A DNA stretch of 64,000 bases from Gammaproteobacteria bacterium (GTDB lineage: Bacteria > Pseudomonadota > Gammaproteobacteria > Steroidobacterales > Steroidobacteraceae): contig PKXS01000142.1 of NCBI GenBank assembly GCA_003132425.1, positions 653 through 64,652 on the forward strand, in the 5' to 3' direction. Positions 5,447-49,552 of the stretch are shown piece after piece. Numbering within the stretch: the stretch's first letter is position 1; each line of letters begins with the position of its first letter. Below the pieces are notes generated by a model. The model saw only the letters and a program-made list of their open reading frames with translations, did no database searches and had not been told where the DNA came from. The position numbers were made by a program, and so were the translations under genes.

Positions 5447-5602
5447 ATGCGCGATAAAATCAAACTGGTCTCTTCGGCAGGCACCGGGCACTACTACACC
5501 ACCACGAAGAACAAGCGTCTGCATCCGGACAAGATGGAGACCAAGAAATTCGATCCGGTCGCGCGCAAGCACGTGGCCTATAAAGAATCGAAGATCAAGT
5601 AG
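5447..5602 (+). CDS. rpmG: 50S ribosomal protein L33
   Basis: Below the 60-aa cutoff of the track. Hand translation from ATG 5447 to TAG 5600-5602 gives 51 aa, [51 protein letters not shown]. It lies 12 nt after rpmB. Confidence 0.95.
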
Positions 5603-33429: not shown

Positions 33430-34833
33430 TCACGGGGCGAGGCCGGGTTCCGCCGCGAATTCGACCCGGTTGTTGGCGGCGGCCGCTCGATTCCAGTCCC
33501 CGGCCGTGAGAGTCTCGCTGCGCGCGGGATAGGGAGCGATCGGGCGAGTCGATCCGGCGCTTGCAAGAGACACCGCGATTTGCCCCTGGGTGCGCTGGCG
33601 GACGCCCGCGACCAGATTCGCAAATGCGAGCGATTGGCGCTGTTGCCCCGTTAAAGCTTCCTCGAATGGATTGCCGATGACATCGCATTTTCCGGCGGGC
33701 ATGCCGGCGCTTGCCGGCGTAAACCCGTCCGTCGGATTGCCGGTGAGACAAAATAATCCGGCATAACTGGTGATCCTGACCACGCCATGAAATCCCTGGC
33801 CTTCGAGTCTCGCCAGAAGATCGCGCAATGCATCCAGACGGCCGCGATCAAACGGCAGTTCGCCGTAAGGAACCGTTTCCGTACGCGACGCGGACGTGCC
33901 TGGGCTCGCGGCAAAGACCGTAGCGCCCGGCGCGGCGCCAGTGCTGGGCGACGCCGCCAGGGCGGCCGTGAGATCCTTGACGGTTGAAGTAAGATCCGAC
34001 CGCGCACGGTTGAGTTCCGCATTGGCCGAGGTCAACGACGCGATTTGCGCGCGCGATTTGGCCAAATCATCGCGGGCAAGCGCCCATAAAATGAGAAACA
34101 GAACGGCAATCGCGCAAACCGCCGCGGGCGCCGCCCATCGCGGCCATTCCGGCTGAGTTGCCGGCGCCGCCATCGGCGCAGACTGAATCGGCGGCGGCGA
34201 GGGAAGCACGTCGCGCACGTCGCGCACGTCGCGCACGTCGCTGACGATCCGCGACGCGAAGCTGTCCAGGCTTGCGACGATGAACCGGCGCATATCGACG
34301 GCCTGGTCCTTTACCGCCGCCTCGATGCGCCGCCCCCAATCCACGCGAGGGACAACAGGGTCATACGCCGCCGCGGCCGCGGCGGCGGGGACTTTATCGA
34401 CCGCCAGACTACCTTCCAGCTCGACCGGGAGAAGCGCGGCCTCCGTCATATCTCGACGCTCGGGCAAAAGATGCAGTTCGTACAACACTTTGGATACATC
34501 GACCGGGCGAACCTGCTTCGGCAATACGCCCATCGCCCCCAGCGCGCGCGCTTGCCCGACATACAGCTCGCCCTCCTGCGAGGTGTACATCATGATCGGG
34601 ATCATGGCGGTCTGAGGATTGCTCTTGATCGCTTGAACGGCCTGCAAGCCATCCATACCGGGCATGAGATGATCCATGAAAATCGCGTCAGGCCTATGCC
34701 GCGTCAGATAATCGATCGCCTGCTCGGCTGATTCCGCCATGTCGACTTCAATGTCGTATTTCTCGAGCATGCGGCTCAGGATGACGCGAGCCGACTTGGA
34801 ATCGTCGACGATTAGTGCACGTTTGCGGGCCAT
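33430..34833 (-). CDS. Response-regulator receiver protein with TM helix, coiled coil and C-terminal OmpA-like domain
   Basis: 467 aa. CheY-like REC (LIVDDSKSAR...IFMDHLMPGMDG...LPKQ), DVRDVRDVRDV repeat, TM (AAVCAIAVLFLILWALA), coiled coil, then a degenerate OmpA-like end (...ANNRVEF). Confidence 0.75.
   Translation of the reverse strand: MARKRALIVDDSKSARVILSRMLEKYDIEVDMAESAEQAIDYLTRHRPDAIFMDHLMPGMDGLQAVQAIKSNPQTAMIPIMMYTSQEGELYVGQARALGAMGVLPKQVRPVDVSKVLYELHLLPERRDMTEAALLPVELEGSLAVDKVPAAAAAAAYDPVVPRVDWGRRIEAAVKDQAVDMRRFIVASLDSFASRIVSDVRDVRDVRDVLPSPPPIQSAPMAAPATQPEWPRWAAPAAVCAIAVLFLILWALARDDLAKSRAQIASLTSANAELNRARSDLTSTVKDLTAALAASPSTGAAPGATVFAASPGTSASRTETVPYGELPFDRGRLDALRDLLARLEGQGFHGVVRITSYAGLFCLTGNPTDGFTPASAGMPAGKCDVIGNPFEEALTGQQRQSLAFANLVAGVRQRTQGQIAVSLASAGSTRPIAPYPARSETLTAGDWNRAAAANNRVEFAAEPGLAP
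34207..34242. repeat. In-frame 9-nt tandem repeat (about 4 copies)
   Basis: cacgtcgcg x3 followed by cacgtcgct; encodes (DVR)n inside the 33430..34833 CDS. Confidence 0.9.
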
Positions 34834-35387: not shown

Positions 35388-36170
35388 TCAATCGCGAATG
35401 CCGGTGCCTCTGTTCAGCAGCGTCACGGCCAGTGCGAACATGAACACGGCGGCGGATATCATGATCCCATAGGCCAGCCTGAGATCAACATCCGACGTGC
35501 CGAGAAAGCCGTAGCGGAATGAGCTGACCATGTACAGGATGGGGTTTGCGTTGGAGGCGACGTGCGCCCAATCGGGGAGCATCTTGACGGAGTAAAATAC
35601 GCCTCCAAGGTAAGTCAACGGCGTGAGAACAAAGGTCGGAAACCAGGAAATTTGATCGAAATTCTTGGCAAATATTGCGTTGACGAACCCGCCCAGAGCA
35701 AACACGATGCTGGTGAGCAGCACCGCGGAGACGACCGCGAACACATGCAGCGGCACGAGACGCGTGAAGAACAACGACACCACCGTAACGACCGACCCCA
35801 CGAGTACCCCGCGCAAGACTCCGCCGATCGCATAACCCGCAACGATCAGCCAATTGGGCAGCGGCGAGACCAACAGCTCTTCAAGGTGCTTGCCGAACTT
35901 GGCGCCGAAGAACGAGGACACGACATTGCCGTATGAATTGGTGATGATCGTCATCATGATGAGTCCGGGAGCGATGAACTGCATGTAATCGTAGCCGCCC
36001 ACTTGGCCGACCCGTCTGCCGATCAAGCTGCCGAAAATGATGAAATACAATGTGGCGGTGACGGCGGGCGGCACGATCGTTTGCCCCCAAATGCGCACGA
36101 TGCGATTGAATTCGCGAATGACGATGGTTTTAAAGCCGATCCACTCGGTCCTGGCGCGCGACGCTCGCAT
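35388..36170 (-). CDS. ABC-2 type transporter permease (YadH-like)
   Basis: 260 aa, six TM segments, ABC-2 signature region. 3 nt downstream of the ATPase gene. Confidence 0.9.
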   Translation of the reverse strand: MRASRARTEWIGFKTIVIREFNRIVRIWGQTIVPPAVTATLYFIIFGSLIGRRVGQVGGYDYMQFIAPGLIMMTIITNSYGNVVSSFFGAKFGKHLEELLVSPLPNWLIVAGYAIGGVLRGVLVGSVVTVVSLFFTRLVPLHVFAVVSAVLLTSIVFALGGFVNAIFAKNFDQISWFPTFVLTPLTYLGGVFYSVKMLPDWAHVASNANPILYMVSSFRYGFLGTSDVDLRLAYGIMISAAVFMFALAVTLLNRGTGIRD

Positions 36171-36173
36171 GAT

Positions 36174-37112
36174 TTACGCGCTCTTGACGGCGGCGTCTTT
36201 GGCCCCGCCGTCGACGAGGCGAATGAACAGCTCCTCGAGCCGATTGACCTTGTTGCGCATGCTGTTGACTTCGATTCCCTGCGAGGAGAACTGCGCAAAA
36301 ATATCGTTCAAACTCTGCGACTTCGACATTTCGATCTCGAGCGTATGGTCATCGGACAGCAAAGCGTTGAAGCCCGTCAATTGCGGCGGCGTGCTCCTGG
36401 AATTGCGTAGATTGAATACGAAAACTTCCGTCTGCAGCTTACGAAGTACGTTGGTCATGCTGTCGCGCTCGATGATCTTGCCGCCGTCGATGATCGCGAT
36501 ATGGCGGCAAAGATTTTCCGCTTCCTCCAGGTAGTGGGTCGTCAGGATTATCGTGGTGCCCTGCTCGTTGATATTGCGCAGAAACTCCCACATCGACCGG
36601 CGAATCTCGATGTCGACGCCCGCGGTCGGCTCATCCAGAATCAACAGCTGCGGTTCGTGCATCAAGGCGCGCGCAATCATGAGGCGCCGCTTCATGCCGC
36701 CCGACAAAGTGCGCGCGATCGAGCCGCGCCGGTCCCACAACTGCAATTGCTTCAAGTACTTTTCGGCGCGTTGTTTGGCGAGCGGCCGCGGTATTCCGTA
36801 GAATCCCGCTTGGTTCACTACGATCGTAAACACCGTCTCGAACATGTTGAAATTGATTTCCTGCGGCACCAGGCCGATGCAGGACTTCGCTACTTCAAGC
36901 TCGCGATCGATGTCGTGGCCGAAGACTTCGACAACGCCGCTGGTCTTGTTGACCAGGGAAGTGATGATGCCGATTGCCGTCGTTTTGCCGGCGCCGTTCG
37001 GTCCCAACAGCGCGAAGAAATCCCCCTCCGCTACTTCCAGGTCGATGCCTTTGAGCGCCTTGACGCCATTTTTGTAGATCTTCGTGAGCTGGCGGAGGAC
37101 TAGGGCATGCAT
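36174..37112 (-). CDS. ABC transporter ATP-binding protein (YadG-like)
   Basis: 312 aa. Walker A GPNGAGKTT, signature LSGGMKRR, Walker B LLILDEPT. Confidence 0.93.
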   Translation of the reverse strand: MHALVLRQLTKIYKNGVKALKGIDLEVAEGDFFALLGPNGAGKTTAIGIITSLVNKTSGVVEVFGHDIDRELEVAKSCIGLVPQEINFNMFETVFTIVVNQAGFYGIPRPLAKQRAEKYLKQLQLWDRRGSIARTLSGGMKRRLMIARALMHEPQLLILDEPTAGVDIEIRRSMWEFLRNINEQGTTIILTTHYLEEAENLCRHIAIIDGGKIIERDSMTNVLRKLQTEVFVFNLRNSRSTPPQLTGFNALLSDDHTLEIEMSKSQSLNDIFAQFSSQGIEVNSMRNKVNRLEELFIRLVDGGAKDAAVKSA

Positions 37113-37175: not shown

Positions 37176-37793
37176 TCAGGGCAGCCGCGCCGCAGCAGCG
37201 AGTTGCAACCCGTAGAGCTGGACGCGTCGCAGGCCCGCAGGGTCGGAGCGCGACGCCGCGCCCACCAGCGCGCTCCAATATGCCCCGCAATAGCTCCATC
37301 GTGCGGTCAAATTGACAGCCTCGGTGGCGACCAACGCCGGCAGATAGTCGAGCGTCGTGCGGCGGAACGCAGCGGCCGTGTCGGCGTTCATTCCCAGCAG
37401 CAGTTGCGCCGCCAGCCCCGCGGTAGAGGCGACATGCCATGCATAAAAAAGCGCCAAACGCACGAAATTGGCGGTGTCGCTGTCGAGCGCCGGCTCGTCC
37501 GCCACGCACCAGCGGCCGGTGTTCTGCAAACGCGACTGCCAATGCCCGTCATCCTGAAAGCGTAAGTCGAACAACGCGTAAGGACAGTTGGCCGCCGCCG
37601 CCCGTTGCGCCGGCGAGAGCGGCGCCACCTGCCTGCCCAAGTCCGCTGCACCGCCCCTGCCCGCGGCACTCCAGCCCCCAGCCCGTGCGCCGGCCAAGTC
37701 GAGGAACCGATGATTCAAGTCGCGCAAGGAGGCGAGTATTTCAACCGACAGATGCGAATCGGCCGCCCAACTGCTGACGAATGCCTGCTGCAT
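37176..37793 (-). CDS. Hypothetical protein with two weak FlhD-like segments
   Basis: 205-aa ORF, 63 nt upstream of the ABC genes on the same strand and divergent from the FlhC-like gene. By-eye similarity to FlhD in residues about 15-92 and about 105-180 (see findings). Confidence 0.5.
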   Translation of the reverse strand: MQQAFVSSWAADSHLSVEILASLRDLNHRFLDLAGARAGGWSAAGRGGAADLGRQVAPLSPAQRAAAANCPYALFDLRFQDDGHWQSRLQNTGRWCVADEPALDSDTANFVRLALFYAWHVASTAGLAAQLLLGMNADTAAAFRRTTLDYLPALVATEAVNLTARWSYCGAYWSALVGAASRSDPAGLRRVQLYGLQLAAAARLP

Positions 37794-37976
37794 GACCGCC
37801 TCCAGACGCCGTTAAACGATTTCCAGGCTTTTGGGTGGAGTTTTTGCGCATTTCGCTGCGAACACAGCGGCAATCGCGTGTCAACCACTTGGCAGCAACG
37901 CTAACTTTGTGATTAATTTCTGTCAAATTCTTTTTGAGGTCAAAACCGCGCGAATTGCACTGCAAGGGAGACGACA

Positions 37977-38579
37977 ATGAGAGTATCCGACGACCGCTAC
38001 ACCCGCGACCGCCAGCGCCTGGACCTGGCCCTGCGCTTGATCCGCCATGAGGCCCGGACCTTCACCATTCGCCAATGGACCGGCTTGAGCGACGATCGAA
38101 TCCGCAAGCTGTACCGCAGCTATGTCATGAACCAGGATGCACGATGCATTCTTAGGCACCGCGGCAAGTCGCCGCGCCAGGCCGCCTTTTTCTTCAGGAA
38201 CGCCGAATTGAACTTCCAGGGCGCGCAGCTTGCGAGCTTGTTCCTCATGTATGGGCTGTTGAGCGGCACCGCCCTGGGCCTCGAGGCGCGCTATCGCATC
38301 GGATCGCTGGAGTCGGGGACTTTATTTTGCCAGGCCTACGAGGCGTACCTCGAGCTGCACGCGCCCGCAGGCATCTCTTTCGAGCACGCGTGGTTCTTAT
38401 TGCTCGCGCTGGCACGGCGCGACGAATTAGGAATTTTCCGCTGCGGCGCTTGTGGCGGAGTGCAGCTGCGCGACCTGCTCGCACGGCGCGCGCGCTCCTG
38501 CGGGAATTGCCGGCCGGCCGCCGCCGGGGGCACCGGGGCCGCCTTGCAGCCCATAATCGAGTACGTCGCGCCCTGCTAG
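37977..38579 (+). CDS. FlhC-like zinc-ribbon transcriptional regulator (non-flagellar context)
   Basis: 200 aa, GGGAG RBS. Collinear with E. coli FlhC: LSDDRIRKLYRSY vs LSRGRLIKLYKEL, RGKSPRQAAFF vs KGMLPFSTDWF, AYEAYLEL vs AYRLYLEQ. Also a CGAC-x15-CGNC four-Cys site where FlhC has CNCC-x16-CSLC. Confidence 0.7.
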   Translation: MRVSDDRYTRDRQRLDLALRLIRHEARTFTIRQWTGLSDDRIRKLYRSYVMNQDARCILRHRGKSPRQAAFFFRNAELNFQGAQLASLFLMYGLLSGTALGLEARYRIGSLESGTLFCQAYEAYLELHAPAGISFEHAWFLLLALARRDELGIFRCGACGGVQLRDLLARRARSCGNCRPAAAGGTGAALQPIIEYVAPC

Positions 38580-38589
38580 AATCCAATCG

Positions 38590-39534
38590 ATGCAGCAAAG
38601 GAACATTTTCGCGGGCCCGTATCTGGACCGCGCCGCGCATCTGCGCCAGGATCCGGCCTGGTTCGCAGCCGCGCTCGCCGACCCGCATAGCCGCGCGGTT
38701 CCGGTCTGGAATTCCCGCTGCCTCATTGTCGTGGGCGATTCCCCGCGAGCGGCGTTTTTAGAACTCTCCCATGTGGCGCAGAACCGGTTGAACAGCAGCG
38801 ATCTGATCCTGCTGGGCCGATTTGGCGATGCCGATTATTTTGCCTACGAGATCGAAGCGGCCGACCCGCCGCCACTGCTGGACGGCGCGCGCTTCGAGGA
38901 TCTGCGCCAGATCGCGTCGCTCCTGCCCGCCGATGAAGCCGGCGTGTTGGGCTATGCCAAGGCGATGATCTCTTGGCGCCGGCGGCACCGCTTTTGCGGC
39001 AATTGCGGCGCAAAGACGCTGCCGGTCAAGGGCGGACATGTTCTGGTGTGCAGCGATCCGGCCTGTCGCAATGAACAATTTCCGCGCATCGATCCAGCCA
39101 TCATCGTCCTGGTCAACGATGGGGAGCGGGCGCTACTCGGCCGCCAAAGCTCCTGGCCGCTTGGGCGCTACTCCACCATCGCGGGCTTCGTCGAGCCCGG
39201 AGAGTCGCTCGAAGATGCGGTGGCGCGCGAGGTGCGGGAGGAAACGGGGATCGCGGTCGATGGGATCGAATACCACTCATCGCAGCCGTGGCCGTTTCCG
39301 GCCTCGTTAATGCTGGGGTTCACCGCGCGGGCGCTGACTCATGAGGTGCATCTGGGGGATCAGGAGCTCGAGGACGCGCGCTGGTTTTCGCGCGCCGAGC
39401 TCGCCGCGGGCGTGCCGCTCCTGCCTCCGATTCAGTCGATATCCTATCGTTTGATCGAACATTGGTACGATGCCGGCGGGAATCAGCGCCTGCATGATGT
39501 TCAGGGAGCTGCCCCCTGGCCATCGTCCCGCTAG
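38590..39534 (+). CDS. nudC: NAD(+) diphosphatase (NADH pyrophosphatase)
   Basis: 314 aa. Zinc ribbon CGNCGAKT...CSDPACRNEQFPR, Nudix box GFVEPGESLEDAVAREVREETGI, SQPWPFP motif. Confidence 0.9.
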   Translation: MQQRNIFAGPYLDRAAHLRQDPAWFAAALADPHSRAVPVWNSRCLIVVGDSPRAAFLELSHVAQNRLNSSDLILLGRFGDADYFAYEIEAADPPPLLDGARFEDLRQIASLLPADEAGVLGYAKAMISWRRRHRFCGNCGAKTLPVKGGHVLVCSDPACRNEQFPRIDPAIIVLVNDGERALLGRQSSWPLGRYSTIAGFVEPGESLEDAVAREVREETGIAVDGIEYHSSQPWPFPASLMLGFTARALTHEVHLGDQELEDARWFSRAELAAGVPLLPPIQSISYRLIEHWYDAGGNQRLHDVQGAAPWPSSR

Positions 39535-48467: not shown

Positions 48468-49552
48468 ACGGCATGCGCACGGTGGTTGTCGACAAAATCG
48501 CCTCGGTCACTCAGGCGCTCGGCCTGGCGCACGAGATTCGCATCGCCACGGAAATTCCTTGCGAGGAAGGGGTGGTATTGGTCGTCGAGATTCTCAACAA
48601 CAAGTCGACTTACAATACGCTGGAGCTCACCAGCGGCCGCATGGCGAAAGTCGCGCGCGGCGACGTGGTGGTCGGCGCGCTGGGTCATCGCAAGGCTTTG
48701 TTCGGCTATTCGGGGCACATCCCGCAGGCGCTCAAACCCGGCGACGTGATTCAGATGCTGAATATCGGCGGTGTGCTCGGAATCTGCGATTCCGCGACGC
48801 CGGACAAGGGCAAGCCTTTCGACTGCAGGGTGCTGGGCACGGTGCTCGCATTTCCCTTTCTGGGTGAGCGCATCGGCGTCCCCGCCAAGGCAGGATACAG
48901 GGCCTTGGACTACGACGCGGCGCTCGACGTGCGCGGCGTGCCGGTAGTCGCGCTTGCCGGCACCTGCATGGAGGCCGGCAAGACCGCCGCGGCATCCGCC
49001 ATCATTGCGCGCATGCGGCATCGCGGATTGGTCGTGGATGCCTTCAAAGCGACCGGTGTTTCGCTGCGCCGTGACATCATGGCGTTCGAGGATTCGGGCG
49101 CGCGCCGCACGATGATCTTTACGGACCTAGGAATCGTGACCACCACGGAGAAGTGCGGCCCGGCGCTGACGCGCGCCATGCTCACGGAGATGGCAAGCGG
49201 GCAGCCCGACGTCATCGTGTTCGAGCTGGGAGACGGTCTGCTGGGAACATACGGCGTACAATCGATCCTGCGTCAACCGGATATCAAGGCCGCACTGACC
49301 TGCGTCGTCCTTTCCGCCAACGATCCGGTCGCCGCTTGGGGAGGCGTGAAGTTGCTGCGCGAGCGTTTCGGCATCGAGCCCAGCGTCGTGACGGGCCCCG
49401 CAACGGACAATCAGGTCGGCGTCCAGATCATTCGCGACCAAATGAACGTCGCGGCGTTCAATGCGATCAGCAGTCCCGCGGATCTGGGCGACCATATCCT
49501 CGCCAAGTTGCGGCTGAGCAATGTGCGCGAGCCCAAAGTCGCCGGCGAATGA
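48464..49552 (+). CDS. Uncharacterised P-loop protein embedded in the arginine operon
   Basis: 362 aa. ATGA overlaps with the argG stop (48464-48467) and the argC start (49549-49552). GTCMEAGKT loop at aa 166-174. Does not resemble any canonical Arg enzyme. Confidence 0.8.
   Translation: MNGMRTVVVDKIASVTQALGLAHEIRIATEIPCEEGVVLVVEILNNKSTYNTLELTSGRMAKVARGDVVVGALGHRKALFGYSGHIPQALKPGDVIQMLNIGGVLGICDSATPDKGKPFDCRVLGTVLAFPFLGERIGVPAKAGYRALDYDAALDVRGVPVVALAGTCMEAGKTAAASAIIARMRHRGLVVDAFKATGVSLRRDIMAFEDSGARRTMIFTDLGIVTTTEKCGPALTRAMLTEMASGQPDVIVFELGDGLLGTYGVQSILRQPDIKAALTCVVLSANDPVAAWGGVKLLRERFGIEPSVVTGPATDNQVGVQIIRDQMNVAAFNAISSPADLGDHILAKLRLSNVREPKVAGE

Follow-up and report, generated by a model that had tools for sequence, protein, structure and literature searches.

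A pair of divergently transcribed genes in a 64-kb window (the whole stretch of DNA that was analysed) from an uncultured soil member of the Steroidobacteraceae (Gammaproteobacteria) encodes relatives of both subunits of the FlhDC family of transcription activators. Unlike every characterised member of that family, the pair is neither flagellar nor element-borne. The gene for the FlhC-like protein (C gene, 200 amino acids (aa), 37977..38579, + strand) and that for its FlhD-like partner (D gene, 205 aa, 37176..37793, − strand) are separated by a spacer of 183 bp, and both open reading frames are confirmed as first described in an earlier note on this DNA. The favoured explanation, which is considered reasonably probable, is that the pair represents a chromosomally fixed heteromeric activator of the FlhDC family with the architecture of AcaCD and SetCD, probably autoregulated. 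The earlier note had taken the two genes for an FlhDC-type pair; membership of the family is retained, but the closest described analogues are AcaCD and SetCD and not the flagellar FlhDC. It had also called the pair unrecognised. This applies to the D partner, which in the sources searched is a “hypothetical protein” or has no name, with only occasional precomputed FlhD Pfam matches. However some C homologues are already automatically annotated as “FlhC family transcriptional regulator” or “Flagellar transcriptional activator (FlhC)”. In the literature, no description was found of a chromosomal, non-flagellar and non-mobile FlhDC-family member.

The C protein is securely placed by profile comparisons as a true but distant member of the FlhC superfamily, collinear from end to end, zinc site included. 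The motifs LSDDRIRKLYRSY, RGKSPRQAAFFF and AYEAYLEL, by which the likeness was first seen, are all found in it. Of the two Pfam comparisons proposed in the earlier note, that of FlhC (PF05280) with the C protein gives a full-length match with an E value of 5.9e-5 and 23.3 bits, which is below the gathering score of 27, and the D protein alone gives no Pfam match, and none in NCBIfam. The NCBIfam FlhC equivalog NF009365 scores 23 bits with the C protein, far below its cutoff of 216. The PF05280 match is precomputed for many close homologues of the C protein. BLASTP gives the protein 24% identity to E. coli FlhC and pairs C156/C159 with C137/C140. Matches become stronger when profiles are used: a profile of close homologues matches solved FlhC at 1.7e-5, and a profile of 36 diverse C homologues (A3) matches Cupriavidus necator FlhC (8j56_C) at 1.8e-11 and E. 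coli FlhC (2avu_E) at 9.5e-9, the latter over the full length (5-185 versus 3-168). With hhalign, A3 also aligns with AcaC of pAR060302 over 142 columns (probability 95%, E 3e-8).

The four-cysteine zinc-ribbon site, C156-x2-C159-x15-C175-x2-C178 (38442..38510, + strand), is conserved in the homologue alignments. All four cysteines are invariant among 22 close homologues (A1) and among 50 diverse members (A4); A3 retains C156/C159 without variation and C175/C178 at 90% conservation or more. The CxxC...CxxC arrangement is kept in 68/88 full-length representatives, and the remainder mostly look like frameshifted or fragmentary gene calls. Thus the earlier description of the 200-aa protein as FlhC-like with a four-Cys zinc site holds, the homology being real though remote.

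The D protein is FlhD-like and, as judged by the same kind of comparison, has two FlhD-like domains in tandem. The N-terminal domain, aa 16-88 (37530..37748, − strand), is seen with profiles, with hhalign and with Pfam on homologues, and the C-terminal domain, aa 114-186 (37236..37454, − strand), with profiles, with hhalign and with Pfam/NCBIfam on distant partners. Residues 11-88 of a close-homologue D profile (A2) match FlhD 8j56_A at E 1.7e-4, and Pfam FlhD matches the N-terminal region in 6/7 close D homologues (E 9e-5 to 0.015), at residues 17-88 in four of the seven and at the equivalent region in two N-terminally longer gene calls. For the C-terminal half, a profile of 26 diverse partners (A6) matches 8j56_A at E 3.6e-5, and the NCBIfam and Pfam FlhD matches of D partners from the type IV secretion clade described below are located in this same half. 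An alignment of five FlhD proteins served as the canonical reference for hhalign. Aligned with it, D aa 16-88 matches FlhD 4-74 (probability 84%, E 8e-6, score 32.8) and D aa 114-186 matches FlhD 18-91 (probability 88%, E 3e-6, score 37.3), and the reversed and 30 column-shuffled controls score at most 15.2 throughout. D partners of all groups (chromosomal, type IV secretion, DUF6502) align along their full length. The suggestion that the divergent 205-aa protein resembles FlhD is borne out by these profile and homologue matches, which add a second domain to it.

In practically all loci open to checking, the C and D genes are conserved together. With one genome scanned for each GTDB species, a close relative of the C gene turned up in 451 genomes; the best 80 of the 451 are all Steroidobacteraceae or Steroidobacterales metagenome-assembled genomes, and in these 80 the gene order ABC2-ABC-D(-) / C(+)-nudC is kept. 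Where nudC or the ABC genes are displaced, the adjacency of D and C is retained. Among 138 fetched loci having at least 1 kb of upstream sequence, a divergent partner is adjacent in 123 and is found somewhere in the locus in 130; in the remaining eight the upstream sequence is mostly too short to reach the D gene. The co-occurrence across genomes that had been raised in the earlier note is evident from these counts. Pairing holds across chromosomal, type IV secretion and DUF6502 neighbourhoods, down to ~25% partner identity. Several independent metagenome assemblies also have a gene call for the identical 205-aa D protein, among the same neighbours. Both genes are under purifying selection, the ratio of nonsynonymous to synonymous substitution (dN/dS) being 0.12 for the C gene and 0.18 for the D gene, compared with 0.16 for nudC and 0.07 for the ABC ATPase, at synonymous sites that are saturated (dS > 1).

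It could be argued that the adjacency is inherited synteny, and that the two proteins are not a functional pair, with each of them, or C only, acting alone. C and D are indeed divergent and not in one operon, their pairing is predicted from sequence, and single-sequence family matches for D are weak or absent. Nevertheless this is thought very improbable, as the pairing persists amid completely different neighbours and at low partner identity, separated C and D genes each keep a copy of the control block described next, and there is the precedent of FlhDC and AcaCD, in which a C subunit lacking D is unstable or inactive (PMC4605294).

The spacer between the two genes contains an AT-rich control block of 49 nucleotides (nt), at 37888..37936, in which most positions are at least 95% identical in 78 species. 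This near-invariance persists despite dS > 1, and the block is the sole stretch of the 64-kb window with at least 70% A+T over 40 nt. Within it lies the imperfect palindrome TTTGTGATTAATTTCTGTCAAA (37906-37927). On the − strand the block displays a perfect -35 hexamer, TTGACA (37926-37921), then a 17-nt spacer and TAGCGT, a combination that is likely to be the D-gene promoter; at its threshold, a consensus scan for sigma-70 promoters had no match in the spacer between the genes. More distant chromosomal relatives have TTTGG(G/T)A-(A/T-rich)-(T/A)CCAAA palindromes at the equivalent position, accompanied in some of them by a second box, TTTTGGGAAAATTTTCCCAAAA, and element-borne relatives with type IV secretion genes have palindrome variants of their own at this position. 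Where the pair has been split by an insertion the block is duplicated, with one copy for each gene (L020, with a spacer of 410 bp, L162 and L166; also L130). Autoregulation by the pair would fit these observations, because the palindrome arms vary by clade and both genes depend on the block.

A second, less conserved spacer block (GCGCATTTCGCYGCRAA..CAGCGGCAAT) is at window 37846-37880, in what is presumed to be the D-gene 5′ leader. It holds a short hairpin, and is missing from a sub-clade with 113-115-nt spacers. The putative 5′ untranslated region of the D gene folds no better than shuffled sequences (z = 0.21).

The proposed mechanism is as follows. The C protein (~200 aa, with its Cys4 zinc ribbon) and the D protein (~205 aa) would form a heteromeric transcription activator, in which the two fused FlhD-like domains of D could replace the FlhD homodimer of the FlhD4C2 complex. 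The pair is fixed at one locus of the core chromosome, by nudC and near arg genes, throughout a Steroidobacterales-wide clade, and both genes would be transcribed divergently from the shared AT-rich palindromic block. The D-C complex most likely binds this control block itself, giving autoregulation in class II style with an operator that overlaps the -35 element, and may drive at least its own transcription units, i.e., C with nudC, and D, perhaps with the ABC-2 exporter. Formation of the complex, for which the co-conservation is indirect support, binding to the block, activation as opposed to repression, and the targets are proposed on the strength of sequence and of analogy with described systems.

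The FlhDC family as described comprises the flagellar FlhDC, the characterised SetCD and AcaCD, and the sequence-identified SgaCD, AqaCD and AsaCD, the non-flagellar ones being found on MOBH-type elements of Enterobacteriaceae and Vibrionaceae (PMC4542580). These non-flagellar pairs serve IncA/C plasmids, SXT/R391 integrative conjugative elements and SGI1-type islands as heteromeric master activators. FlhDC, SetCD and AcaCD are class II activators with operators overlapping the -35 (PMC4542580), and AcaD co-purifies with AcaC (PMC4542580, PMC4605294). The AcaCD footprint of ~40 bp contains the core site GCCCTAAAAGGGC, an inverted repeat that is short and has an A/T centre (PMC4605294), and the operators predicted here are likewise short inverted repeats with an A/T-rich centre. 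AcaD has 202 aa (PMC3915882), close to the 205 aa of the window protein, and appears to share with it the pattern of two FlhD-like halves. In AcaCD and SetCD as in the window pair, the system has two subunits of the FlhDC family, and C is a protein of ~180-200 aa with a C-terminal CxxC...CxxC. AcaC itself has 183 aa. The link to conjugation extends to the sister clade of the window pair, whose members head type IV secretion genes. Thus by subunit sizes, two-domain D and zinc ribbon, the window pair resembles AcaCD/SetCD more than it does flagellar FlhDC.

There are also differences. AcaCD and SetCD are encoded in overlapping, co-directional D-C operons on MOBH elements with F-type mating pair formation (MPF_F), whereas the window genes are divergent and lie in the core chromosome of a whole order. 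The similarity is too low for tblastn, the operator sequence differs, and the mobile relatives of the window pair carry VirB-type and not F-type transfer genes. In hhalign, D profile A6 is collinear with AcaD over 169 columns, but the match is weak (E 4.6e-3, probability 7.6%).

AcaD is usually credited with just “very weak” FlhD similarity. In the present comparison AcaD of the IncC plasmid pAR060302 (L177:43425-44030) looks to have two FlhD-like domains in tandem, residues 107-169 matching FlhD at E 1.5e-5 and residues 23-98 more weakly (E 2e-3, score 24.9). A fused double-FlhD subunit may be general among non-flagellar members of the family.

BisDC of ICEclc, a more distant member, is another two-protein, FlhDC-analogous activator from an integrative element, with positive autoregulation; BisD has an N-terminal ParB/CTP clamp domain and BisC is without a zinc site (bioRxiv 10.1101/2024.09.16.613209). 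The window pair shares with BisDC the two-protein FlhDC-type organization, and autoregulation is described for BisDC, debated for SetCD and proposed here. However Pfam reveals no ParB-type domain in the D partner, and the window C protein has the invariant Cys4 site, and on both counts identity with BisDC was ruled out.

Since FlhDC is the founding function of the family, a further possibility is that the pair is a true FlhDC, a divergent flagellar class I master regulator of the Steroidobacterales whose flagellar genes lie elsewhere in the genome. The likeness to FlhD4C2 of Enterobacterales and Burkholderiales (PDB 2AVU, 8J56) is in the collinearity of C with FlhC, including the Cys4 site, in the alignment of each D half with FlhD and, by analogy, in a class II mode of activation. 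In one organism, GCA_016707425.1 (L083/L084), the pair is directly beside flgBCDEFGHI and flgAMN, and several Steroidobacteraceae are motile (PMC7966939). This adjacency is found in just 2 of ~167 loci, both from that organism. In the L083 spacer between flgB and flgA, a pattern scan found two correctly oriented sigma-54 -24/-12 promoters (TGGCAY-N5-TTGC; L083:5281-5295 on the − strand and 5473-5487 on the + strand, facing flgB and flgA), where 0.06 would be expected by chance. FlhDC-dependent class II promoters are of the sigma-70 type. No TTTGG..CCAAA boxes are present near the flg genes of L083/L084. Polar flagellar systems are usually controlled by FleQ or FlrA. Described Steroidobacteraceae are non-motile or have a single polar flagellum (PMC7966939).

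The proteins themselves also differ from those of the flagellar system. Flagellar FlhD has one domain only, with 99-116 aa, and its gene is directly upstream of flhC and in the same direction, whereas the window D protein is two-domain and divergent and has, like AcaD, ~200 aa against ~110 aa in the flagellar system. The C protein is below the FlhC equivalog cutoff and shares only about a quarter of its residues with E. coli FlhC. In a rough neighbour-joining tree of C proteins the family branches with the element-borne activators, apart from flagellar FlhC; the order from the root is flagellar FlhC, then an FlhC-family protein of a MobH plasmid (pRI-1), then the chromosomal clade with its type IV secretion/DUF6502 sister clade. 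As had been noted earlier, the window has no flagellar context: tblastn revealed zero homologues of flagellar rod, hook and ring proteins (Flg) across the 64 kb. A flagellar role is thus judged quite unlikely, because of the lone flg-adjacent case, its sigma-54 promoters, the missing boxes, and the non-motile or polar condition of the Steroidobacteraceae.

The wider family was collected in an exhaustive profile search and clustered at 50% identity, which gave 887 clusters at E <= 1e-3 and 629 at E <= 1e-10. It is abundant in soil metagenomes; for the metagenome scan, a 50-sequence distant alignment was dropped as too diverse. By gene context the relatives fall into three groups. The chromosomal clade, 46-88% identical to the window C protein, is Steroidobacterales-wide and has the order D(-)/C(+)-nudC-(TANGO2)-tamA-tamB-...-argR-argG, which matches the neighbourhood in the window. 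In the type IV secretion clade, at 33-46% identity, virB3, virB4, a VirB5-like gene, virB6/trbL and virB8 come immediately after the divergent D/C pair. In the DUF6502 sub-clade, two or three DUF6502 (PF20112) paralogues are found between D and C, on the same strand as C.

Loci of the DUF6502 sub-clade are L093:1720-5022, and also L094-L097, L113, L115, L120 and L122. Their C protein has a conserved Q..LF motif at its end, and a D-like gene is 3-4 kb upstream. D/C-headed virB operons are found at L088:10001-17328 and L099:5039-18413, and also in L101, L118 and L141. In L099 the pair and the virB genes adjoin a tyrosine integrase and a tRNA-Ser(GCT) beside alaS, and the locus is for this reason regarded as an integrative conjugative element (ICE). 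The D/C-headed virB elements appear to form a class of VirB-type integrative elements, equipped with an FlhDC-family activator, that has not been described before, and no description of divergent D/C pairs on VirB-type elements was found in the literature.

These element-borne relatives bear on a further explanation, that the window pair serves a mobile or secretion module, either as the trans-activator of a conjugative element or type IV secretion system elsewhere, or as a “listening” or hijack device for incoming elements. The sister clade does head VirB type IV secretion operons on ICEs. AcaCD, SetCD, the putative Sga, Aqa and Asa pairs and BisDC all control element transfer, and SgaCD is an example of such a pair that can act on another element (PMC4542580; bioRxiv 10.1101/2024.09.16.613209). 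Against this, the window locus has a fixed, syntenic position and is inherited vertically throughout a clade at the level of an order, with identities as low as ~46%, and a mobile target is not expected in each of hundreds of species. The operator variants of the chromosomal clade differ from those of the type IV secretion clade. No integrase, relaxase, type IV secretion or other conjugation genes were found within the 64 kb by tblastn and Pfam, in agreement with the earlier statement that ICE genes are not nearby, and tblastn with C proteins of the window and of the type IV secretion clade gave zero matches among 72,556 plasmids. The chromosomal context is conserved across the window clade, with no plasmid matches, and it is the sister clade that is element-borne. 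Service to a mobile module is considered unlikely, though somewhat less so than a flagellar role.

Several points weigh against the reading of the pair as an autoregulated FlhDC-family activator. Taken singly, the window proteins score under the curated family thresholds. AlphaFold2 monomer models are poor for both proteins, with a predicted local distance difference test score (pLDDT) of 56 for C, from a shallow close-homologue alignment, and of 50 for D, again from a shallow alignment. With the C model, C. necator FlhC (8j56_F, 8j56_C) is the sole meaningful fold match in Foldseek (probability 1.0, template modelling (TM) score 0.47/0.57), and with the D model, at its pLDDT of 50, Foldseek gave zero matches. 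The N and C halves of D show no significant match in a direct hhalign comparison; because the halves do not match one another, tandem duplication is deduced by way of FlhD, which each half matches separately. The neighbour-joining tree carries no support values, and the divergent gene order is unlike that of all characterised D-C operons. As to the control block, the spacer of the palindrome is 2 bp longer in the window clade than in the other clades. The layout of the block, TGnnA-N6-TnnCA, resembles CRP/FNR-type sites, and another factor, e.g., a CRP/FNR-type regulator, could equally bind it in place of the pair. Finally, neither the 64-kb window nor ~2.5 Mb of related loci yielded a second copy of the block. 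These operator searches covered the window and 170 loci and consisted of the exact block with up to 3 mismatches, TTTG-N-CAAA scans and per-locus fuzzy searches. Thus a regulon beyond self-regulation is unsupported, as no second block was found. This bears on the earlier suggestion of a regulator recruited to a different regulon, for which the sole candidate operator found is the one at the pair's own promoters.

The immediate neighbours of the pair differ in how old their linkage is. Directly downstream of the C gene is nudC, coding for NADH pyrophosphatase (38590..39534, + strand; Pfam NUDIX, NUDIX-like, Zn_ribbon_NUD). Its start is 10 nt from the C-gene stop, the distance given earlier, with no terminator-like site between, and nudC is probably co-transcribed with the C gene. 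Members of the chromosomal clade keep this linkage, even those at ~46% identity. On the other side, the ABC-2 exporter (35388..37112, − strand; Pfam ABC_tran, ABC2_membrane) consists of an ATPase (36174-37112) and a permease (35388-36170). The earlier note had the D gene head a YadGH-type ABC-2 operon. This arrangement is correct for the window sub-clade, where the ABC-2 genes adjoin the D gene, but not for the wider clade; the ATPase starts 63 nt past the D-gene stop, and the gap has a weak terminator-like hairpin (37153-37134). In some more distant chromosomal loci (L104, L134) the ABC-2 genes are still within ~3.5 kb, and in most of the wider chromosomal clade they are not beside the D gene. 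The linkage to nudC is thus much older than that to the exporter. The exporter was ruled out as a conserved target of the pair because its linkage is clade-specific.

Further upstream of the ABC-2 genes, and conserved as their neighbour within the window clade, is a 467-aa response regulator (33430-34833, − strand), in which the receiver domain alone is recognised; it is followed by a long uncharacterised C-terminal region that carries a VRDVRDVRDV repeat. By Pfam, ordinary core genes flank the pair on both sides and identify the window as core chromosome. These include genes for glutamate synthase, ada, prolyl oligopeptidase, a SPOR protein, the response regulator, TauE and a GGDEF protein, as well as DUF1800/DUF1501, argG/C/D/B/H and polA. 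Rfam reveals no RNA families in the region of the pair or in the whole window. ARAGORN calls a tRNA-SeC at 49007-49106 (+ strand), between argG and argC, which is probably a false positive, the Rfam tRNA and tRNA-Sec models all being below gathering score window-wide.

The characterised FlhDC-family activators govern either flagella or the transfer of mobile elements by which antibiotic resistance spreads. The window lineage is vertically inherited, chromosomal and order-wide, and in the rough tree its sister clade is on VirB-type integrative elements. It may tentatively be suggested that an element-type activator was domesticated into the Steroidobacterales core genome, or that the chromosomal genes were the stock for the activators of the elements, and that the module now controls a host programme, autoregulated and possibly bistable, that has no relation to flagella or conjugation. 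Among its candidate targets would be the neighbourhood of nudC (NAD-cap/NADH hydrolase), TANGO2 and tamAB, which suggests an envelope or RNA-decapping response. The two-domain D, seen in AcaD as well, suggests the idea that a single fused D chain may take the place of the FlhD dimer across the non-flagellar branch of the family. If confirmed, the case of this lineage would mean that an FlhDC-type module can pass between the regulation of elements and that of hosts, and would provide a natural system for studying the domestication or recruitment of master switches.

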